Shown here: positions 52,884 to 61,084 of the stretch, in pieces
Position numbering within the stretch: the first letter of the stretch is position 1
Layout: every line of letters starts with the position of its first letter
Origin: Deltaproteobacteria bacterium
Lineage (GTDB): Bacteria > Desulfobacterota > Syntrophia > Syntrophales > JAFGHS01
DNA length: 64,000 bases
Assembly: GCA_016928025.1 (NCBI GenBank)
Contig: JAFGLN010000023.1
Span: forward strand, 17,067-81,066
Direction: 5' to 3'
The notes under the pieces: generated by a model
Seen by the model: the letters and a program-made list of their open reading frames with translations, nothing else
What the model was told of the DNA's origin: nothing
Database searches by the model: none
Made by a program: the position numbers and the translations under genes

Positions 52884-53645
52884 TTATCGGGCAAACTTTC
52901 TTTTTTTCAATCCTGCCAGACCGGCCAATCCTAATCCTAAAAGCAGCACAGCGGCCGGCTCGGGAACCGGCGGAGTATTTTCCAACTTGATTGAGGTTTG
53001 AATCTGCAAATTTGAAGCGGATGTATGTCTTTCGGCAAAGAAGAAATCAAAGTCATATACATTGCCAGCCGTCAGTCCCAAAGTGTCGAGGTTCACGGAG
53101 TCGGGTACCGCACTGTGAATGCCCCCCAAATCAATGACCAGTTGATCATTGATGAAAACCCAGACATCGTCGTCACCGGTAAAGTTAAAGGTTTGTCCGG
53201 TCTGGTAGGTAAATGCAGTGTGTATCTCGTAGGTGAAGTGATAATTGTGACCCGTACTTCCGTAATTACCTAAAAGCTGACCGTCGATCGGGAAGAAGCT
53301 GCTGCTGTAATAGCTGTAAATGCCGGAGCCGGAAGACGTCTCGTTTAGTGTTATGGTGTAATTCGTTAAATTTGTTGTGTTGTGGTACCACTGATTAAAA
53401 TTGGTTTGGCCGTGGACAGAGCCATAGGTCGCGGCGCCATGAGCATAGACGGGTTTGCCGTCGGAACCCAGGGTCGTCTGAACAATTCCCGTAACATGAC
53501 CGCAGATGCCCGCCTCAAAATCGTTATTCGTGCTCGGGGTGAAATCTCTGATGGTTCCGGTAAGAGTAATGGACCCCGCATATCCTTGCGAACCTATTAC
53601 CAGAGCCCCTAAAAGAACAAGGGCGATAAGCATGACTTTCTTCAT
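52884..53645 (-). CDS. fibro-slime (PA14-like) domain protein with PEP-CTERM sorting signal
   Basis: Signal peptide; TIRDF, FFPID, HNYHFT, FTGDDDVWVFIN..LVIDLGG.H and FFAERH motifs; VPEP + TM helix + KKRK tail. Confidence 0.93.
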   Translation of the reverse strand: MKKVMLIALVLLGALVIGSQGYAGSITLTGTIRDFTPSTNNDFEAGICGHVTGIVQTTLGSDGKPVYAHGAATYGSVHGQTNFNQWYHNTTNLTNYTITLNETSSGSGIYSYYSSSFFPIDGQLLGNYGSTGHNYHFTYEIHTAFTYQTGQTFNFTGDDDVWVFINDQLVIDLGGIHSAVPDSVNLDTLGLTAGNVYDFDFFFAERHTSASNLQIQTSIKLENTPPVPEPAAVLLLGLGLAGLAGLKKRKFAR

Positions 53646-53756
53646 ATTACCTCCTTTTTAAAACTATTAGTGTGTTTCGAGCGATCTATAAACAGAACAT
53701 TTTATATTTTATTTTTTAAGATACCATCGTCTGAAAAAGTCTTCTAAAGTAAAACA

Positions 53757-53772
53757 TGCAATGGTTGTACCC
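53757..53772 (-). promoter_or_regulatory. sigma54 (-24/-12) promoter of the PEP-CTERM gene
   Basis: Minus strand GGGTACAACCATTGCA matches GG-N10-GC with TTGCA. Confidence 0.65.
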
Positions 53773-53881
53773 GGGTATGCCGTGCCGTCATGAGAAACGC
53801 ATATCATTATAATATTATTAAAAAAATCCAGTCTGGGGAAAGATTAAAGTTAATCGGTCTTTGTTTGTATTCTCAATTATT

Positions 53882-54189
53882 TGTAAATAAATCCGACAGT
53901 GGCTCTTCGTATTTTGAGCAACTCACCACCAAAAAATTAAAAGAATAAATGATTAGTCACGATTAAAAAACGAATGATTATAATAAATTGCTTTAAATAT
54001 CCGTCATCAGATTTACGGGCGTATAAAGGCCTGTTAATAGATTGCGAAACATGTAAATTCAATCGACGATTTTCATGGCAGTTTTACTTGTTAAAGGATA
54101 GAAGGTGAATTAATAGAGTAAAAATAGCATATTATATGCTATCGGTGAATGAAGAATATATTCAATGAAGCTTGTAAAATTTTCCGTCA
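53882..54189 (-). promoter_or_regulatory. three PrsR-type (PEP-CTERM box) enhancer sites
   Basis: Plus strand TGTAAATAAATCCGACA (53882), TGTAAATTCAATCGACG (54052) and TGTAAAATTTTCCGTCA (54173); each ends in TTTACA on the minus strand. Confidence 0.6.
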
Positions 54190-54242
54190 GTGCGGTCAAC
54201 AATCTGCTAATATCACATGGCAAGATTTGATTCATATCCCAT

Positions 54243-55430
54243 CTAACGGATCAGATCGTGTTCGGGCATGTCGTGCAGTTGCCGGATGTAGGAACCCATT
54301 GTTTCGGGGAGGTATCTGCCCCAGAGCTTGATCGGCGGCCGGTCGATATCGGTCCGGGGACTGAAACCTACTGCGAATAACGACTCAACAAGGAACTCGA
54401 CGTTCATGGGGATATACCCTTTGTATGTTTTGTTATCCCGCTGGGCGATGATTCTTTCCTCATGGAGGCTGCTGCCGAATTCGGATTCCACCATATCGGG
54501 AAAGGTGGTGAGAATCAGCTCGATATTGATCTTTGTTTCGGCATCCGGCAAAAAGACTTCCAATCCCTTTTGCAGGTCCTCATCGAGAATGCCCCGGCCG
54601 GTATAGCGTTTCCAGGCTTCCTTGGTCTGATATTGTCGACAGACATGTTCCGCGTTCCAGGGAACTTCCAGAATGCAATTGACGGCCCGATACTTGCCGC
54701 GAAATTCCTCCCGTTCAATGATGCTTATATCCCGGACGTTCAGCAGGTCCTTTTCGAACCGAGGCAAATCATCGCTGTCCGTAACAATCTTCAGAGCACC
54801 CACATCATGGATGGTCATGGCAGTTTTCTCAAACTTGATACCTCCGTCTCGAAAACGTTCGGCGATCAGCTCTTCCGCCCGGATGAATTCTTCGATCATC
54901 TGCTCTTCAGGCGTTATGAACCGGTCGAGGGGGATGCCGTGGCGCTTGGCCCTTTCCCGGGCCATGGCCTTGGCCTGCTCCACAACCTTTTCATAAATCC
55001 AGTTCGCGATTCGGCGGTTCGCCTTCTCGGCGATTCTCTTCGGCCGCTTTATTCTGTATGATCCAAGCAGGTGATTTGCATCATCAAGGAAAACGACGGC
55101 ATTGATCGGTGCTTCACGATAGTAGTAGTCGGGGTTTTCGTCATAGCGCTGCAATAACTCCGCCACACGGGGCGGTGCTTTTCGCCTGTCATTGTATATA
55201 ATGTCACGCAGTTCCCCTTTGGACCGAATGTATTTAGGCCGGTATGGCTTGTGATCGGTCGTGTCGATCAAGTGCCTGATCAGAGCGGCTAAGGTTTCAT
55301 GGACGACGAAGCCGTCACAGATGAGGATTTTCTTGAGGGTTTGACAATCACCGGGCTCCGGACAATTGCAAAACCAGCGCTCGGCGATATCGAACAGGGC
55401 ATTTCGATGGATAAACGATGTCAGATACAT
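54243..55430 (-). CDS. hypothetical protein with divergent RelA/SpoT synthetase-like motifs
   Basis: Ordered motifs RIKRPKRIAEK, IHDVGALKIV, GKYRAVN and IELILTTF...EFG...H. The ORF is secure; the function is inferred. Confidence 0.6.
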   Translation of the reverse strand: MYLTSFIHRNALFDIAERWFCNCPEPGDCQTLKKILICDGFVVHETLAALIRHLIDTTDHKPYRPKYIRSKGELRDIIYNDRRKAPPRVAELLQRYDENPDYYYREAPINAVVFLDDANHLLGSYRIKRPKRIAEKANRRIANWIYEKVVEQAKAMARERAKRHGIPLDRFITPEEQMIEEFIRAEELIAERFRDGGIKFEKTAMTIHDVGALKIVTDSDDLPRFEKDLLNVRDISIIEREEFRGKYRAVNCILEVPWNAEHVCRQYQTKEAWKRYTGRGILDEDLQKGLEVFLPDAETKINIELILTTFPDMVESEFGSSLHEERIIAQRDNKTYKGYIPMNVEFLVESLFAVGFSPRTDIDRPPIKLWGRYLPETMGSYIRQLHDMPEHDLIR

Positions 55431-55806
55431 TGATGACGCTCCAGCCGTTTTAAGATGCTCATCATTTCAACCTTTGCGGTTGTTCGTTACGGGATGGGTG
55501 CCTCGGATAAAAAAATGTTATTTCGAGCAGTTGCAATATAGGTGAAGCGATTCGAATCTGTCAAGGTAATTTCGCTGGTCCGATGATACTTGTCCCTTGA
55601 CAGGATTCAGCAAATCGTTTAAAAAATTGCTTATTTGAATGCTTAAATGAACCATGGAACCATGGGAAGGCTCTTTTTAAGAGCGGGTATCGATGCAAAG
55701 TCCTCAAGATGCCTCCCGATGGTTCCGCCCCAGGCATTCCCCGCGCATTTAGAGTGAAAACGTCATTTTTTGAAAGTTGTTTCCCATCAACGAAAGCGAG
55801 CCTGCC

Positions 55807-56745
55807 ATGACACAAGCAATCCGGAATAAGACGTTCAAATTTGCCGTTCCCGACGGGTTTCAGATTTTTGTCCGCCGCTGGGTGCCGCCGGTGGGGGTAA
55901 AACCCCAGGCCGTCATCCAGATCGCCCACGGCGCGGCGGAGCACAGCCTGCGCTATGAGCGCTTCGCGCGGTTTCTCAATCAGGCGGGCTATATTGTTTA
56001 TGCCGACGACCACCGCGGCCACTGGATGACGGCGGGAACTTTAGATAATGCAGGTATCGCGGGCGACGACGGCTGGAATGGGATTGTCAAAGACATCAAA
56101 CAGTTGACGGACATCATCAAGGAAGAAAACCCGGGCCTGCCCGTCTTTTTGTTCGGCCACAGCATGGGTTCCCGCATAGCCCATCACTACATCCAGCAGT
56201 GGGGGGAAGGGCTTGCGGGCGTGGTGCTTTGTGGCTCGTCGGGTGCCATTCCGCCGGATCTGGACAAAAGCATCGCCATTATGGAGTCGAAACCCCGCGA
56301 AAAAATCATGAAAAGCATGTTTAAAGCCGCCAACAGCCGCTTTGAGCCGGGCAAGACCGGCTTTGAATGGCTTACCCGCGACGAGGCGGAGGTGCGGAAA
56401 TACGTCGATGATCCCTGGTGCGGCTTTCCTTTTACGTATGGGTTCGTCACGGACATGCAGAAGGCGTCGCGGGAGCGATGGAAGCCGGAACATCAGGCGC
56501 GCATTCCGCGGAATCTTCCGGTTTATCTTATCTCCGGCGCGGACGATCCGGCAGCGGGGGATCACGGCGAGAATTTTACTCTGCTGGTTGAACACTTTAA
56601 GCATGTGGGCACGCATGACCTCACGGCAAAATTGTATCCAGGGGCGCGCCATGAGCTCCTGAATGAAACAAACCGGGACGAGGTGCACCGGGACCTGCTG
56701 GCCTGGTTCGATGCTCACCTGCATCCGCAGTCCGGACAAGCTTAA
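55807..56745 (+). CDS. alpha/beta hydrolase (lysophospholipase/monoacylglycerol lipase-like)
   Basis: HGAAEH..RY, DHRGH, GHSMG, SGADDP and ARHELLNE motifs. Confidence 0.93.
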   Translation: MTQAIRNKTFKFAVPDGFQIFVRRWVPPVGVKPQAVIQIAHGAAEHSLRYERFARFLNQAGYIVYADDHRGHWMTAGTLDNAGIAGDDGWNGIVKDIKQLTDIIKEENPGLPVFLFGHSMGSRIAHHYIQQWGEGLAGVVLCGSSGAIPPDLDKSIAIMESKPREKIMKSMFKAANSRFEPGKTGFEWLTRDEAEVRKYVDDPWCGFPFTYGFVTDMQKASRERWKPEHQARIPRNLPVYLISGADDPAAGDHGENFTLLVEHFKHVGTHDLTAKLYPGARHELLNETNRDEVHRDLLAWFDAHLHPQSGQA

Positions 56746-56809
56746 ACAAATAGATAAAAATATTCTGCATGATATCGATCACAACCGAAATCGTCGCTGG
56801 AGGTACTGT

Positions 56810-59800
56810 ATGTCTGCTCATAAAACACAAGGATTTGGATATGCCCTGAAGAAATGCCGATGGTCCGATTTGCGGCTTTTTTCAAGCAGGATGCTTTCCA
56901 CAATGACCTTCATGGGTGCCTTTTTCATCCTTGCCATGATGGCAATACCCGTTTCGGCGACGACGGATGACCATAAAACGCTGATGCAGCTGCCATCCAA
57001 CGGGGAAGCTGATGAGACCCTGGACCGGCTGCCCCTGATGTTCGAACCCAACGAAGGGCAGGCGGTGGGAGGCATACGCTATATTGCCCGTTGCCCCGGC
57101 GCGACACTTTATTTCCATGACGGTGCCGTGGATATAATCGTTCGTCGCCAGGGATCAGGGTCTCGCTCCGTGTCGTCGGTCGGTAAAGCAGTCGTTTCAG
57201 CGGCACGGGAGCGAATCCGAATGCGGCTCGTCGGTGCCCGACCGTTCCCGCAGATCGAACCGGTCGGCAAACTGCCAGGGGAAGTCAACTACTTCAAAGG
57301 GCCTGATCCGGCGAAATGGCGGACCGGCATCCCGACCTATCGCAAGATCAAATACACGTCCGTTTATCCGGGAATCGACCTGGTGTTTTACGGTAACGCG
57401 CGGATGCTGGAGTACGATTTCATCATCCGTCCCGGCGCCGATCCGTCGCAGGTCCGCATTGCCTTTGACGGAGCGAAAGAAGAATGGATAACCGAAGACG
57501 GCGCCCTGGTCATGTCCACGCGGGGGGGCGACCGTGTATTGCAGCATAAACCCGTCGTTTACCAAGACGTGAAAGGCTGCCGCAAGGTTGTCAACGGCGA
57601 GTATCGGTCCCGGGGCCGGGGGCTTTACGGTTTTGACGTGGCGGCGTATGACTCCAAACAGCCCCTGATCATCGATCCGGGCTTCCAGTTCTCCTCCTAC
57701 ATCGGCGGGACAGATGAAGACAGCGGAGGCAAGGAATGGGTCCGGGGAATCGCCGTGGGGGCCGACGGAGGCGTTTATATCGGTGGTATGACAACGGCGA
57801 CGGACTTTCCCGCTATCAGCCAGATCCCGGGGGCGGCCAACGATTCCAGCGTGACAGTGGAACACGACGCCTGGGTGGCCAAGGTTCACCGCTCCGGCAC
57901 TTTTCTGGAGTGGAGCACCATCCTGGGCGGCATCGGCAGCGATACGATCTGGTCACTTGCCCTGGATTCCGGGGACAATGTGGTCGTAGCCGGGACGGGA
58001 TCGTCATATTTCCCGGAGGTGAAGAAGCTGTATACCGATGGCGGCATGTTCGTAACCAGGATCAAGAGCGACGGCACGGAACTTTTGTTTTCGACCCGCT
58101 TCGGCGGCAGCGGCGACGGCTTTGCTGCCGCGGTGGCCGTGGATGATGAAGACAATATCTACATTACCGGTTACACGGAGGCGGAGGATTTCCCCGTTAC
58201 GGTCGGCGCCTTTCAAACCCAGCTGAAAAAAGATGATCCGCAGTTTGCCCAGGATGCCTATGTCATGAAGATCGATCCCGCCGAGCCCAAGGTGGTCTAT
58301 TCGACCTATATCGGTGGATCGAGCTATGACTGGGGTCGGGGCATCGCCGTGGACGGCGAGGGTTGTGCCTATATTGCCGGAGAAACCGCTTCAACCGATT
58401 ATCCGGTCGCTCATGCCTATCAGGGGGCCCATGCGGGGGGAGCCTATGATTGCATGGTAACCAAACTCACGGCGGACGGCTCCGGTTTGGCTTACTCCAC
58501 TTTCCTGGGCTCTGCCGACGGGGGCGCCGGGTCGGCCTCGGAAAGGTGCAGCGCCATTGCCGTGGATGCGGCGGGCCAAGCTTACGTCACCGGCATTACC
58601 AAGTCGGAGACCTTTCCGACCGTAAATCCTGTCCAGGGCAGCTGCGGCGGTGACGTTGACGCGTTTATCGCCGGCTTCGCCGCGGACGGCTCCGGACCCC
58701 TTTTCTCCACCTATCTGGGGGGTGCCAAGATGGACCACGGGTATGCCATTGCCGTGGATGCCCAGGGATACGTTTACGTCGGCGGGCATACCACATCCAA
58801 TACCGACTTTCCCCTGGTTGATGCCGCTCAGCCAAATTTCGGCATGGGCGTCACCGATCCCAAGGATTGGTGGGACGGCTTTGTCACGGTCTATACGCCG
58901 GGTGGGGCGGGCCTTCATTTTTCCACCTACCTGGGCGGAAACAACTGGGATACCGTCAGCACCCTGGCCGTCGATACGGCCGGAGCGATCTATGTGGGCG
59001 GCCAGACGACTTCCCAGACCTTTCCGGTCGTCGGGGGCATCGATTTTCCCGGCGGGTCCTTTCCCAAGCAGAATTCCCTTCAGGGCGTTTATGACGGATT
59101 CGTGACGAAGTTCGGATCGATCTATTCGGCCTATCTCATCTTCAGCGACCTGGCGTTGACTCATGAGGAAAATGCCGATCCCGTCAGGGTCGGCGACGCC
59201 TTGGTCTATACCCTGACGGTGGAGAACAAGGGCCCCGACATCGCGGCGAACGCGACCCTCAAGGGCGTACTGTCCGGTGTTTTTGATTCCGTGACCCCGA
59301 CGCCTTCCGTCGGGAGCTGCACGGGCGGGGCCGCCTTTCTCTGCGAGCTGGGCGATTTGGATCCGGATACGACCGCCACCGTTACCTTGACCGCTGTTCC
59401 CGCCCGCATCGGCACGGCCGGCCTCGAAGCGTTCGCCTACAGCGATTCGGGTGACACGAACACGGACAACAACGATATCACGGAGGAAACGGACCTTATC
59501 CCCGCCTCCGACCTCATTCCCGATCCGACCTGCGCCGTTTTGCGCTCCACCGAAGCAGGCCGCCGATCGCCCGTGCAGACCTTTTTGATCACGAACAGCG
59601 CCGGTGTCAACCGGACCGTCGGCGAGATCAGTCTTTCCGGAGAGGACGCGGCGGAATTTCAGTTGGACAGCGATACCTGCTCCGGGATGACCCTGGCCCC
59701 CGATGCGCACTGCAGTGTCGGTGTCGTCATGGCGCCCGTAGCGGCGGGCGACAAAGAGGCCCTTTTGAATATTCCCTCCGACGACAGCCGCTTCCCAGTG

Positions 59801-61084
59801 GTGGAAGTTCCCCTTAGCGGAAAGGCTTATGTTTTGGGTCCTCCGGCGCTATTGCTGCGGAAAACCGGCCAGAAAACGAGTTATGCGGCGGGCGATGACG
59901 GGGACCTGCAAAAGGGTGTCGATTGGCCGGAGCCGCGCTTCGTCGACAACCACGACGGCACCATCACGGACCTCCTGACAGGTCTCATGTGGCTCAAGCA
60001 TAGTAACTGTTCGGCGGCCATCGGCCTGGGAACCTATTATTTCGGCGAATTAACGTGGCAGGAGGCTCTCGATTTTGTGGCGGGCATCAACGATAGGACT
60101 TACAACATTGCCGCCTGCGGCGGTTACACGGCCAACTATACGGACTGGCGCCTGCCGAATGCCAATGAGATGCGCAGCCTCTACACCGCCGATCTGACGT
60201 TGGGCGGGAGCGATCAGCTGAAGGCCTGGGGTTTCATCCCCTGGCACGCGCCCCTGGGCGGGGATCAGCAATGGTGGTCATCTACGACCCTCGCCGCCAA
60301 TAACATTTGTGCCTTTACCGGATGGATAAGATTAAATCCGATAGGCAGCAACAGAAAGGTGCCGGAGCGTTATTCTACTTCTTATACACAAGCCTGGCCA
60401 GTCCGCGATGCCGGCATTACCCCCGTAGTGCCGGTTGCACGGACAGGTCAGTCCCAGTGCTACGACAGTCAGGGCAACACCATCGATTGTCTCGGCACCG
60501 GCCAGGACGGCGAGTTGCGTAAAGGGATTGCCTGGCCCTGGCCCTCTCCCCGGTTTCTCGACCACGGCGACGGGACGGTGACGGATCTTCTGACCCATCT
60601 CATGTGGATTAAGGACGCCGATCTGCTGGAAAGCGACTGGGACTATGCCCTGGACGACATCGCCGATCTCAATGCCGAAGCCTATCTGGGACATACGGAC
60701 TGGCGGATGCCGAACGCCGAAGAAATGTTCAGCCTCAAAGACTTTACCAGTACGAATAATATTTGGGCCCTGCCGGCGGACCATCCCTTCATCAATGTCC
60801 AGATAAGATATTGGACATCAACAGCCTACAATGCGGCAAAGCGATTGTACTTTGATCGACGCTATGGCTTGTTCGGCTGTTATGATGCAGAGGAAGCGGT
60901 GAGTGTCTGGATCGTTCGGGGCGGACCGAAGCCCTATTTCATGGAAGATGCCATCGTTGTCCTGAAGATCCTGACCGGAATGGATACGTCTATCCCCTCC
61001 AGGATCAAAGACATCAACGGCAACGGCACCATCGACCTGGCGGAGGCGATCTTTATCCTGCAAACGTTAATAGATAGCCGATAA
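56810..61084 (+). CDS. large secreted/surface protein: SBBP beta-propeller repeats, DUF11, ASH/Ig-like domain, 2x DUF1566 (Lcl), dockerin-like tail
   Basis: FEPNEGQ/YPGID N-domain; repeated STYLGG and IAVD..G..YV.G.T.S.DFP; DLALT...YTLTVEN.GP; two copies of RF.D..DGT.TD.LT.LMW...Y.DWR.PN..E; DINGNG.IDLAEAI. ATG 56810 after GGAGG. Confidence 0.88.
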   Translation: MSAHKTQGFGYALKKCRWSDLRLFSSRMLSTMTFMGAFFILAMMAIPVSATTDDHKTLMQLPSNGEADETLDRLPLMFEPNEGQAVGGIRYIARCPGATLYFHDGAVDIIVRRQGSGSRSVSSVGKAVVSAARERIRMRLVGARPFPQIEPVGKLPGEVNYFKGPDPAKWRTGIPTYRKIKYTSVYPGIDLVFYGNARMLEYDFIIRPGADPSQVRIAFDGAKEEWITEDGALVMSTRGGDRVLQHKPVVYQDVKGCRKVVNGEYRSRGRGLYGFDVAAYDSKQPLIIDPGFQFSSYIGGTDEDSGGKEWVRGIAVGADGGVYIGGMTTATDFPAISQIPGAANDSSVTVEHDAWVAKVHRSGTFLEWSTILGGIGSDTIWSLALDSGDNVVVAGTGSSYFPEVKKLYTDGGMFVTRIKSDGTELLFSTRFGGSGDGFAAAVAVDDEDNIYITGYTEAEDFPVTVGAFQTQLKKDDPQFAQDAYVMKIDPAEPKVVYSTYIGGSSYDWGRGIAVDGEGCAYIAGETASTDYPVAHAYQGAHAGGAYDCMVTKLTADGSGLAYSTFLGSADGGAGSASERCSAIAVDAAGQAYVTGITKSETFPTVNPVQGSCGGDVDAFIAGFAADGSGPLFSTYLGGAKMDHGYAIAVDAQGYVYVGGHTTSNTDFPLVDAAQPNFGMGVTDPKDWWDGFVTVYTPGGAGLHFSTYLGGNNWDTVSTLAVDTAGAIYVGGQTTSQTFPVVGGIDFPGGSFPKQNSLQGVYDGFVTKFGSIYSAYLIFSDLALTHEENADPVRVGDALVYTLTVENKGPDIAANATLKGVLSGVFDSVTPTPSVGSCTGGAAFLCELGDLDPDTTATVTLTAVPARIGTAGLEAFAYSDSGDTNTDNNDITEETDLIPASDLIPDPTCAVLRSTEAGRRSPVQTFLITNSAGVNRTVGEISLSGEDAAEFQLDSDTCSGMTLAPDAHCSVGVVMAPVAAGDKEALLNIPSDDSRFPVVEVPLSGKAYVLGPPALLLRKTGQKTSYAAGDDGDLQKGVDWPEPRFVDNHDGTITDLLTGLMWLKHSNCSAAIGLGTYYFGELTWQEALDFVAGINDRTYNIAACGGYTANYTDWRLPNANEMRSLYTADLTLGGSDQLKAWGFIPWHAPLGGDQQWWSSTTLAANNICAFTGWIRLNPIGSNRKVPERYSTSYTQAWPVRDAGITPVVPVARTGQSQCYDSQGNTIDCLGTGQDGELRKGIAWPWPSPRFLDHGDGTVTDLLTHLMWIKDADLLESDWDYALDDIADLNAEAYLGHTDWRMPNAEEMFSLKDFTSTNNIWALPADHPFINVQIRYWTSTAYNAAKRLYFDRRYGLFGCYDAEEAVSVWIVRGGPKPYFMEDAIVVLKILTGMDTSIPSRIKDINGNGTIDLAEAIFILQTLIDSR

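Follow-up and report, generated by a model that had tools for sequence, protein, structure and literature searches.

Stringent and alarmone signalling in bacteria centres on the RSH enzymes, and to our knowledge every divergent branch of them characterised so far has brought new chemistry or biology. Tas1 and FaRel produce (pp)pApp, and FaRel2 and CapRel carry out tRNA pyrophosphorylation. The described systems closest to the protein analysed here are RelQ (SAS1/YjbM) and RelP (SAS2/YwaC) of Firmicutes, stand-alone synthetases of around 200-230 aa published as homotetramers (PMC5794853, accessible part). According to the accessible part of the same report, RelP relies on R78 and R112 for adenine, on K80, S84, K88 and R91 for the phosphates, on D107 and E174 for Mg and on H190 for the ribose (PMC5794853). 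The toxSAS modules (FaRel, FaRel2, PhRel and PhRel2) have an adjacent antitoxin in a two- or three-gene operon. CapRel (PDB 7ztb, 9erv) is a fused toxSAS-antitoxin tRNA pyrophosphokinase, in which the RSH domain with an N-terminal extension is joined to a pseudo-zinc-finger antitoxin domain, and a C-terminal YXXY motif closes off the donor site (PMC11782079, accessible part). Tas1 and FaRel also provide a precedent for RSH domains switching their acceptor specificity (PMC7229694 and PMC11782079, both in the parts accessible).

Here we compare these systems with a gene in the window, that is, the whole 64,000-nucleotide stretch of DNA that was analysed (contig JAFGLN010000023.1, from a Deltaproteobacteria bacterium). 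Judged by its predicted structure, the encoded protein belongs to a deeply divergent and so far unannotated branch of the RSH synthetase fold. It has in common with RelQ and RelP the order of strands and helices, the donor residues and their spacing, the Mg ligands and the G-loop Tyr, and it is likewise a stand-alone protein without HD, TGS or ACT domains that has a long Rel in the same genome. However, it is a protein of 395 aa, and the model adds N-terminal strands, a 60-residue hairpin, a 40-residue insert and a 60-residue C-terminal extension to what RelQ and RelP contain. Furthermore, several of their residues are replaced (Ser by Arg132, Arg by Lys214, the Gln and Arg of ExQxR by Ile and Ser/Thr, His by Asn251), the G-loop is reduced to 3 residues, the family escapes PF04607, and modelling predicts a tail-swapped dimer instead of a homotetramer.

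Regarding the other systems, the similarity to CapRel lies in the comparable length, the RSH domain with an N-terminal extension, the single polypeptide, a C-terminal aromatic-x-x-aromatic motif and, according to the model, a possible control of the donor site. Unlike CapRel, this family has neither a PADLOC match nor a defence context, it is far more conserved, and its tail (W370-G-R-Y373) is predicted to act in trans. The long RSH enzymes (Rel, RelA, SpoT; PF04607) show the same fold (Z 6.7-8.8), and their consensus E-x-Q-x-R-T...A-E-x-G-x-A-A-H also has the His 19 residues after the Glu, but the family lacks their hydrolase, TGS and ACT domains and its synthetase motifs are changed. Tas1, FaRel and the exported Streptomyces SAS (6ox6, 8vx3) again have the same fold, with a similarity below that to RelQ and RelP (7.3-7.5 for 8vx3; Tas1 is given below); unlike them, the family lacks secretion and PAAR domains and has neither an immunity nor an antitoxin gene beside it. 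We found no account of this family in the literature on alarmone synthetases, toxSAS and RSH subfamilies; the census supplements may list it. The main text of the RSH census, in its accessible part, mentions neither Deltaproteobacteria nor Nitrospirae (PMC7229694).

The gene, its family and its neighbourhood

The preliminary description of this DNA had reported a 395-aa ORF, and we found it on the minus strand (Table 1), with R126, K128, K136, D209, K214, E239-R-E-E-F, Y247, N251, E304, E317, G319 and H323 all at the positions it had given them. The start codon corresponds to the same Met in the homologues. The promoter-like site upstream of it is not evidence on its own, because the region contains five sites of this kind and the shuffled sequences contained 4.0 on average. 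Rfam gave zero matches at E<=1 across 53600-56000, and the folding of the 110-nt leader was no better than that of shuffles (z 0.36). Regarding sequencing runs that contain the stretch, one DNA run, possibly the source, and no RNA run were listed.

Table 1. Features of the synthetase-like gene and its upstream region, with positions in the window
Feature	Positions	Strand	Residues	Remarks
RelA/SpoT-synthetase-like gene (protein P0001)	54243..55430	-		395 aa, stop codon counted in
GGAG, ribosome-binding-like tetramer	55439..55442	-		9-12 nt before ATG
TTGACA-18-TATATT, promoter-like	55535..55564	-		11/12; ~105 nt 5' of ATG; consensus match only
N-P-D-Y-Y-Y-R-E-A-P, family-specific	55107..55136	-	99-108	predicted tail docking site
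Donor motif 1, R126-x-K128-R-x2-R132-x3-K136-x2-R139-R	55011..55055	-	126-140	
Helical hairpin after motif 1	54834..55010	-	141-199	model helices 130-163 and 175-194
Predicted Mg-binding Asp motif, I-H-D209-V-G-A-L-K214-I	54786..54812	-	207-215	D-x2-G-x-[R to K]
E-x-E-E, short G-loop (G245), Y247, N251	54678..54716	-	239-251	
Helical insertion, Tyr strand to Glu strand	54534..54659	-	258-299	R279 48/51, G280 50/51
E304-L-I-L-T-T strand, then E315-S-E317-x-G319-x3-H323-E324-x-R326...Q330-R331	54438..54521	-	304-331	
P-I-K-L-W-G-R-Y-L-P, family-specific C-terminal motif	54306..54335	-	366-375	

The search for homologues gave 647 cluster matches, a family of "hypothetical proteins" invariant in length, from Syntrophales, Syntrophobacteraceae, Desulfarculales, Thermodesulfovibrionales and a few other anaerobe MAGs. 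The distribution is patchy (15 of the 301 genomes of the phylum), and almost every matching genome has one copy of the gene, two copies being found in 1 of 21 genomes of the order. Between orders and phyla the identity to the query is 52-73% in the tighter alignment used for related loci, whereas the conservation counts given below come from 51 diverse full-length members that are 23-75% identical to the query. The host genome also contains one canonical RSH, a 726-aa frame on a separate contig.

The neighbours of the gene are varied housekeeping genes without prophage or defence context. No neighbouring cluster is shared by more than 11 of the 81 loci; directly downstream of the gene, the most frequent cluster is seen in 9 of 79 loci, and on the upstream side the most frequent one is seen in 5 of 80. 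The orientation of the flanking genes is random, with the upstream gene in the opposite orientation in 43 loci and in the same orientation in 37, and the 16 loci within the order likewise have no conserved neighbour. The earlier view of a stand-alone gene with no antitoxin-like neighbour is therefore borne out in both sets of loci and, since no neighbour is conserved in the 81 loci, the gene is not part of a toxin-antitoxin pair as the toxSAS modules are. In two loci the gene is flanked by PAS histidine kinases; these belong to a generic multi-copy family, and we discarded them as a clue.

Fused forms, looked for as relatives of 693-2000 aa, were not found, which is weak evidence. A 1483-aa frame (locus L024) was rejected as a spurious fusion, because it has no family match upstream and there are ORFs on the opposite strand there. 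Two further candidates (P0229 and P0221), in which family fragments are combined with enolase-like or GFO/IDH domains, appear to be chimeric gene calls. Another relative (P0131) has a 115-residue N-extension that matches no family.

Relation to the RelA/SpoT synthetase fold

The protein matches no model of Pfam (E<=1), NCBIfam or PADLOC. None of the 51 members matches PF04607 RelA_SpoT at E<=1, and their Pfam scan gave scattered chance matches, the best being DUF7893 (E 0.015, in 3 members). The lack of HD, TGS and ACT domains noticed earlier agrees with the zero families of the Pfam scan. A single-sequence phmmer search of the PDB found 0 matches at E<=10. The family profile, searched against PDB sequences, had its best match in RelP/YwaC 6fgk (E=1.8e-4), spanning the Asp and Tyr motifs, and the profile-profile comparison by hhalign with 23 real RSH synthetase domains, which are kin and not independent of each other, gave a 52-column local match (E 0.015, probability 3%). 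When sub-profiles were compared with 2300 shuffled decoys, the Asp/Tyr block alone beat all of them, whereas the motif-1 and Glu-motif sub-profiles were no better than the decoys and therefore the assignment of these two motifs rests on the fold. The best local alignment fell on the canonical anchor in 2 of the 23 RSH domains for K128, in 12 for E304 and in 18 for D209. In the language-model atlas, the two nearest named clusters (0.90 and 0.89) each have PF04607 in 15% of their members. Since PF04607 fails, the relation to RelA/SpoT rests on the fold, one weak profile match and the conservation of the motifs.

The AF2 model of the 395-aa protein has a pLDDT of 92.3 and a pTM of 0.90. Its top 17 Foldseek matches are all small alarmone synthetases, the best being RelP 6ex0 (E 1.5e-5). 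With VIA-align, RelQ 5dec (147 aa, 3.2 A) and RelP 6ewz both reached Z 10.7, CapRel and Rel 8.2 and Tas1 6.4, and the first non-RSH chain appeared at 5.9; a second look gave RelQ 5ded a Z of 11.4, and in that list 23 RSH entries came before any unrelated entry. RelQ and RelP are thus the best structural matches (Z 10.2-11.4), with alignments of 139-149 residues, an rmsd of 2.8-3.4 A and 16-19% identity. A distant member, 32% identical and modelled from a separate 39-sequence alignment, gave a pLDDT of 93.1 and its top 6 matches were all RSH (Z 8.2-6.6). Therefore the Rel-type synthetase fold, on which the preliminary description had staked its claim beforehand, was predicted for the query and reproduced in a distant relative.

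The "unrecognised ~120-aa N-domain" of that description stands in part. The structural alignments begin at model residue 26-32, or at 7-9 for CapRel, so some of this region corresponds to the N-terminal helices of SAS enzymes and is not unrecognised. The two proposed insertions, of roughly 60 and 40 aa, do appear in the model, as a helical hairpin (130-194) and as the segment 258-299. The hairpin region after motif 1 has no counterpart in RelQ and RelP, contains the near-invariant E186 and matched generic helical hairpins only in the fold searches.

Donor site, acceptor side and predicted dimer

The donor side is conserved almost without exception. Motif 1 (R126 50/51, K128 51/51, R132 51/51, K136 50/51, R139 48/51) has the canonical spacing R-x-K-x3-S-x3-K-x2-R, with the Ser replaced by the invariant Arg132. 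In the Asp motif D209 is present in 51/51 members, and position 214 is Lys in 49/51 and Arg in 1. The Glu motif has E304 in 49/51 members and Asp in the other 2, E317 in 50/51, G319 in 51/51, H323 in 50/51 and E324 in 51/51. Compared with the donor residues of RelP, the family shows the same spacing and a conservation of 48-51/51 at the matching places. The catalytic Asp and Glu and the basic ATP-binding residues are thus kept with matching motif spacing, as had been proposed from the single sequence, and the residues whose conservation had been named as a test (R126, K128, D209, Y247 and E304) are conserved at these counts, with the stacking Tyr247 kept in 46/51 members and replaced by Phe in 3 more.

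The acceptor side is different. An acidic E-x-E-E (E239 40/51, E241 42/51) stands where canonical enzymes have RxKD/ExDD, and the loop before Tyr247, with G245 in 48/51, is shortened to around 3 residues. The position of the YxSxH His (251) is Asn in 36/51 members, His in 8 and Ser in 4. In ExQxR, the Gln position (306) is Ile in 45/51 and Gln in 1, and the Arg position (308) is Ser in 21 and Thr in 20 of the 51. Four positions that never vary in the 23 canonical domains are changed in this family, namely the adenine-stacking Arg of DxxGxR, both the Gln and the Arg of ExQxR, and the YxSxH His. On sequence grounds, these four changes could mean either a loss or a change of chemistry; since the replacements are near-invariant themselves (R132 51/51, K214 49/51, I306 45/51), a changed yet selected active site fits, and not decay. 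The earlier proposal of a remodelled acceptor site is therefore well founded at the sequence level. If the acceptor pocket has been rebuilt in this way, the acceptor, or at least the handling of phosphate, would differ from that of GDP/GTP-using enzymes.

The homodimer prediction gave a score of 0.62, and the best of 3 controls gave 0.00. The mark for this score was reached by 20 of the 30 proteins solved as one-chain pairs and by 1 of the 23 solved as single chains, reference counts that are roughly valid only, because a custom alignment was used. The runs share at least 90% of the contacts, and the pLDDT of the partner is at least 82. The mean conservation is 0.533 at the predicted interface and 0.447 elsewhere, a difference matched by 104 of 10000 random sets and by 15 of 394 circular shifts. 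Within this interface, the C-terminal motif of one chain (P366 49/51, W370 41/51, Y373 50/51, P375 46/51) is predicted to pair with the segment 99-108 of the other (372:104, 373:106 and 374:107), in which P108 is invariant and which is the most conserved peptide pattern of the family. Residues 275 and 278-279 of the 258-299 insertion also fall within the predicted interface, and the WGRY tail is predicted to contact the partner's donor site at residues 126-131 and 210. Thus, the modelling predicts a homodimer with the WGRYLP of one copy beside the donor site of the other.

Proposed activity and alternatives

With its ATP-handling residues kept and its second-substrate pocket rebuilt, the protein probably makes or modifies something new. 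The reading that we favour, with a confidence slightly above even, is an active, dimeric ATP-dependent pyrophosphokinase whose acceptor is probably a purine nucleotide; catalysis, donor, acceptor class, dimer and role of the tail are all what we infer. ATP-Mg would occupy the canonical donor site, where R126, K128, R132, K136 and R139 would bind the phosphates, D209 and E304 the metal, and H323 would contact the ribose. An acceptor stacking its base on Y247 would receive the beta-gamma pyrophosphate at its 3'-OH, in a pocket rebuilt by the short G-loop, the acidic ExEE, Asn251, the Ile and Ser/Thr in ExQxR and the R279-G280 insert. This acceptor would be a free purine nucleotide and not tRNA. 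In the homodimer, each WGRYLP would dock on the partner's NPDYYYRE segment and would complete or gate the partner's active site, and the protein would be a chromosomal, non-toxin accessory signalling enzyme working alongside the ordinary long Rel of the genome.

Because the donor site is complete while the acceptor-side residues are systematically replaced, the family is a candidate, and a cloneable one, for a new acceptor specificity; it is likewise a candidate for the control of an RSH active site by a trans-acting C-terminal tail. The family escapes profile-based censuses, PF04607 being blank, and it is strongly conserved in environmentally important uncultured anaerobes, so genomes credited with a single Rel may hide further alarmone-type enzymes.

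A bolder form of this proposal, which we regard as unlikely, is a new class of dimeric RSH-fold pyrophosphokinases with a composite site that the partner's WGRYLP completes or gates in trans. Here the rebuilt pocket would select an acceptor other than GDP/GTP, and therefore the enzyme would make an undescribed nucleotide messenger or pyrophosphorylate a non-nucleotide or macromolecular target. This would serve syntrophic and sulfate-reducing anaerobes as a housekeeping signal, which Thermodesulfobacteriota and Nitrospirota would share through gene transfer.

That the protein is a toxic, self-contained SAS like CapRel seems quite unlikely to us. Such an enzyme would act by tRNA CCA pyrophosphorylation or by ATP depletion via (pp)pApp, and its own C-terminal aromatic motif (W370-x-x-Y373) would be an off-switch that phage infection or a similar trigger would release. 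The model does match CapRel (Z 8.1-8.5), which gives the longest alignment (161-174 residues, from 7-9), but this alignment, spanning model residues 7-337 and residues 13-214 of the 7ztb chain, stops at model residue 333-337 and leaves the C-terminal domain of CapRel outside, and the nearest structures are the non-toxic RelQ and RelP. The predicted position of the conserved WGRY tail at the donor site can be compared with the YXXY plug, although in trans, the N-terminal extension is as in tRNA-binding toxSAS, and FaRel2, with its smaller positive acceptor patch (PMC11782079, accessible part), offers a parallel to the loss of the basic residues that canonical enzymes have on the acceptor side. 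The patchy distribution would also suit a toxin; nevertheless, the housekeeping neighbourhood, the lack of a PADLOC match and the median pI of the family, 6.2, argue against it. Furthermore, the identity between orders and phyla is very high and the length invariant, which is not expected of fast-evolving defence sensors.

It is very unlikely, in our opinion, that the protein is a nucleotide-binding pseudo-enzyme or regulator, which would keep the pocket for ATP or an alarmone as a sensor or scaffold and would have lost the transfer. The replacement of four canonical invariant residues, in ExQxR (Gln and Arg), DxxGxR (Arg) and YxSxH (His), and the drift of the sequence past Pfam detection are consistent with such a loss. 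However, both metal ligands (D209 and E304, the latter with Asp in the exceptions) and all the phosphate-binding basic residues are kept, and the replacing residues R132, K214 and I306 are themselves near-invariant, which fits a changed yet selected active site better than decay.

Finally, the same fold with another nucleotidyltransferase-type chemistry, such as AMP/NMP transfer to protein, RNA or a small molecule as in relatives of MenT, TENT and GrpB, is highly improbable, since the remodelled acceptor side and the Pol-beta folds lower in the lists (TENT5B Z 5.2-6.0, MenT1 5.0-5.5, TdT/Pol mu around 5) would allow it, but the RSH enzymes lead by 4-5 Z units, the protein has a single Asp (H-D209-V) and not the D-x-D pair typical of classical nucleotidyltransferases, and it has the basic helix R-x-K...K...R that is specific to RSH enzymes, exact in its spacing.

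The gene and the distribution of its family

The open reading frame of the preliminary description is real, and every residue named there stands where it was placed when checked on the protein and the alignment. The start methionine of the query is aligned with that of its homologues. Regarding the putative promoter upstream (see table), it is only a suggestion, because the number of sites returned by the scan was about equal to that in shuffled sequence.

Coordinates of the family gene and of the other features discussed (window positions unless a genome or locus is given; G000, the window's genome; G004, a genome of the same order; L017 and L142, loci)
Feature	Position	Strand	Basis
Family gene, 395 residues encoded	54243-55430	minus	ORF call
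GGAG	9-12 nt upstream of ATG	minus	read from sequence
Putative promoter TTGACA-18-TATATT, near-consensus	~105 nt upstream	minus	promoter scan
Antisense ORF, 199 aa, inside family gene; may be a chance frame	54462-55061	plus	
PA14 + PEP-CTERM sorting-signal protein gene	52884-53645	minus	
Spacer between the latter gene and the family stop codon	53646-54242		
Gene of 1473-aa protein	56663-61084	plus	
Weak HD_4 match, 35.5 bits	G000:C24:3785-4036 (L142)		
Broken remnant of family gene	G004:C44:13465-13917		
Guanylate-kinase-like and NTPase_1/THEP1 genes, genus g8	L017:8059-8769 and L017:10250-10786		

The query matched no model of Pfam, NCBIfam or PADLOC, the family itself is unannotated in these collections, and 'hypothetical protein' is the sole name its members bear in the sources. 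A word-indexed search yielded 647 clusters (E<=1e-3), with identities of 56-76% and a length of nearly always 394-400 aa among the 120 clusters listed. Furthermore, 181 proteins, 63 of them at E<=1e-30, came from an exhaustive search among representatives at 50% identity, the lowest identity of full-length members being 24%. No paper on the family was found in a literature search that covered the main text of the RSH (RelA/SpoT homologue) census.

The named records are MAGs without exception, from Syntrophales, Syntrophobacteraceae, Syntrophobacterales, Desulfarculales, Desulfobacteraceae, Syntrophorhabdales, Thermodesulfovibrionales, Nitrospirota and one Methylomirabilota; Thermoanaerobaculales and Myxococcota contribute distant members. 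Among sampled genomes, in which kin are not independent, the family was found in 21 of 41 genomes of the window's order and in 15 of 301 genomes of its phylum (the window's own genome counted). Twenty of the 21 positive genomes of the order have one copy and the other, G003, has two on separate contigs. The 1.8-Mb genome G004 has only a remnant, with residues 1-30 joined straight to 273-393 and a TAG in frame; such a deleted and decayed copy shows that the family gene can be lost.

In a quick, unrooted maximum-likelihood tree of 81 family proteins (L061-L140 and the window's), labelled by submitters' titles, of which many reading 'Deltaproteobacteria bacterium' map to Myxococcota by taxonomy look-up, the window's Syntrophales-type clade lay within a grouping dominated by Nitrospirota/Thermodesulfovibrionales (SH-aLRT 95-96), and a large Syntrophobacterales clade was separate from it. 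The window's Syntrophales-type copies are 59-66% identical to Nitrospirota/Thermodesulfovibrionales copies versus 52-55% to the Syntrophobacteraceae copies of their own phylum. These sequences suggest transfer of the gene between phyla sharing anoxic habitats.

The window's genome has one canonical long RSH on a different contig (a 726-aa frame with PF04607, the Pfam RelA_SpoT model, and HD_4), and 60 of 61 genomes of the phylum sample had a PF04607 match. Therefore, the family adds to the ordinary Rel and does not replace it. In the same genome, HD_4 also gives a second, weak match within an open frame of 161 aa, a possible small alarmone hydrolase.

Predicted fold and sequence-level link to RSH synthetases

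The AlphaFold2 model of the query, built on an alignment of 51 diverse full-length members (A1, 23-75% identity to the query), was confident (pLDDT 92.3, pTM 0.90). Foldseek against the PDB gave 17 hits at E<=1e-3, solely small alarmone synthetases (SAS), the best being RelP 6ex0 (1.5e-5), followed by CapRel, an exported Streptomyces SAS and Tas1. VIA-align, a Foldseek-independent search of 48,161 chains, placed RelQ 5dec (Z 10.7, 147 residues, 3.2 A), RelP 6ewz (10.7) and 6fgk (9.9), CapRel (8.2), Rel (8.2 and 7.5), RelA (7.3), SpoT (7.0) and Tas1 (6.4) before the first unrelated chain (5.9), and in a second look RelQ-pppGpp reached Z 11.4, with 23 RSH entries ahead of any other fold. As a control, a Thermoanaerobaculales member, 32% identical, was folded from a separate alignment of 39 distant sequences only; its model (pLDDT 93.1) had RSH synthetases as its top six matches, with Z of 8.2-6.6, the lower values being due in part to the model's length of over 400 residues. 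Both predicted structures thus match RSH synthetases first, in agreement with the RelA/SpoT-type synthetase fold proposed beforehand. This fold is a consistent prediction, and a prediction it stays because AlphaFold training included RSH structures.

At the sequence level the link to RSH is weaker than that of the fold. The A1 profile searched against all PDB sequences had RelP/YwaC 6fgk as its best match (E 1.8e-4), pairing I-x-D-V-x-G-x-K with I-H-D-I-A-G-V-R and G-x-Y-N-A-T-N-L with N-G-Y-R-S-L-H-L. The same Asp/Tyr block was recovered (E 0.015, probability 3%) when hhalign compared A1 with A2, a reference alignment of 23 RSH synthetase domains, 18 of long RSH and 5 SAS-like, which PF04607 had detected in the phylum's genomes. 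Among sub-profiles of the family searched against these domains and 2300 shuffled decoys, only that block exceeded every decoy (7.3 bits versus a decoy maximum of 6.7), and those of motif 1 and the Glu motif did not. The best local alignments with the A2 domains put D209 on its canonical anchor in 18 of 23, E304 in 12, Y247 in 4 and K128 in 2. By these measures the family lies just past the detection limit of RelA_SpoT profiles.

In a language-model atlas the clusters nearest to the query were unnamed; the nearest named ones (349 aa, Myxococcota, and 394 aa, Acidobacteriota; scores 0.90 and 0.89), with PF04607 in 15% of members, are leads only. Other genomes of the phylum have five short SAS-like PF04607 genes (L056-L060), with frames of 216-424 aa. 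The one in genome G050 has, by coincidence, an open frame of 395 aa, and its canonical RxK/DxxGxR/ExQxR motifs set ordinary SAS genes apart from the divergent family.

Donor site, acceptor site and predicted dimer

Across A1, D28, K71, P108, K128, R132, D209, G319 and E324 are invariant, and R126, R129, K136, R139, E186, K214, G245, Y247, R279, G280, E304, E315, S316, E317, H323, R326, Q330, R331, N343, P366, Y373 and P375 are at least 90% conserved, as are a few hydrophobic positions. Therefore, the candidate catalytic residues singled out in the preliminary description are exactly those under the strongest constraint.

[quoted passage not shown] The family keeps the RelP spacing in motif 1, with R126 (0), K128 (+2), R132 (+6, Ser in RelP), K136 (+10) and R139 (+13), and in the Asp motif, with D209 (0) and K214 (+5, Arg in RelP). 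H323 lies at +19 from E304, matching the long-RSH consensus of A2. By its exact motif spacing, the donor half is therefore intact apart from two conservative replacements shared across the family.

Judged by sequence, this does not extend to the acceptor half, which is rebuilt. The RxKD/ExDD position reads E239-x-E241-E, the loop preceding the Tyr has ~3 residues versus ~10 canonically, the position of the YxSxH His holds Asn in 36 of the 51 members, His in 8 and Ser in 4, and Ile (45/51) and Ser/Thr stand in place of the ExQxR Gln and Arg, which all 23 canonical domains share. These changes bear out the remodelled acceptor site proposed earlier. Furthermore, D28, K71, R279-G280, E324, R326 and R331 are new invariant polar residues in family-specific elements.

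Regarding the assembly, a two-copy prediction scored 0.62 versus 0.00 for the best of 3 controls and passed the mark of the method. Of the proteins whose solved structures are pairs of one chain, 20 of 30 reach this mark, versus 1 of 23 of those solved as a single chain; these counts hold only roughly for the query, because a custom alignment was used. The runs agreed in at least 90% of contacts, with a partner pLDDT of at least 82. The most confident contacts join 366-377 (P-I-K-L-W-G-R-Y-L-P-E-T) of one chain to 99-110 (N-P-D-Y-Y-Y-R-E-A-P-I-N) of the other; residues 126-131, 187, 210, 275, 278-279, 324 and 327-328 are also in the predicted interface, which in the model would be the donor-site rim and the family-specific insert. 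The two stretches are among the most conserved of the family, and the automatic choice of a conserved search pattern fell on one of the two and on the motif-1 helix. The mean top-residue frequency was 0.533 in the interface versus 0.447 in the rest, a level reached in only 104 of 10000 random sets and in 15 of 394 circular shifts. It is unlikely that the model recalls a known complex, because the solved RelQ/RelP tetramers have no such tail. The dimer expresses model confidence, not a measurement, and identical contacts could be made in cis within a monomer.

Genomic neighbourhood and proposed chemistry

When ORFs were called by a simple method and compared all-against-all by BLAST, no neighbour family recurred at 16 loci of the order, except in same-genus pairs. 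At 81 loci, the window included, the most frequent neighbour cluster occurred in 11, the gene most often found directly downstream in 9 of 79 and the one most often found upstream in 5 of 80, and flank orientation was random. With no conserved adjoining gene in either set, the earlier remark that no antitoxin-like neighbour is visible holds. No antitoxin candidate or defence-island signature was seen at the family loci examined, and no fused form of the protein was found.

We propose that the protein would be an ATP-Mg-dependent pyrophosphokinase of RSH type functioning as a tail-swapped dimer, in which the acceptor would stack on the Tyr as before and be bound by a different residue set. A free purine nucleotide is favoured as acceptor over tRNA, because of the high conservation and stable chromosomal location, the lack of an antitoxin, the neutral-to-acidic charge (median pI 6.2) and the closest structures, which are the non-toxic RelQ and RelP. 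In CapRel a YXXY motif is described as plugging the donor site (PMC11782079); by that analogy, W370-x-x-Y373 may have a gating role here, an attractive idea. The rivals to this reading are a self-inhibited toxic enzyme like CapRel, a pseudo-enzyme and some other nucleotidyl-transfer chemistry. Fold and chemistry class are already known. Its architecture, four of its canonical residues and its predicted assembly set the family apart from every characterised RSH synthetase. The preliminary observation is thus confirmed and its interpretation as a divergent RSH-type synthetase supported, enzymatic activity and acceptor being predicted.

The neighbours in the window are a PA14/PEP-CTERM protein, an alpha/beta hydrolase, an SDR, a TPP enzyme and a GntR regulator. 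The spacer next to the PA14/PEP-CTERM gene is unusually long (~600 nt), AT-rich and gene-free. In genus g8, the family gene has divergent flanking genes of nucleotide metabolism, one guanylate-kinase-like (PF00625, matched in its N-terminal part only) and the other of NTPase_1/THEP1 type; locus L023 is arranged alike, and these neighbours are confined to g8. Two genes upstream of the family gene in the window, beyond the divergent 322-aa alpha/beta hydrolase gene, the 1473-aa protein carries DUF7948, SBBP beta-propeller repeats, DUF11 and two Lcl C-terminal domains, and by this architecture resembles a large protein of the surface or adhesin type.
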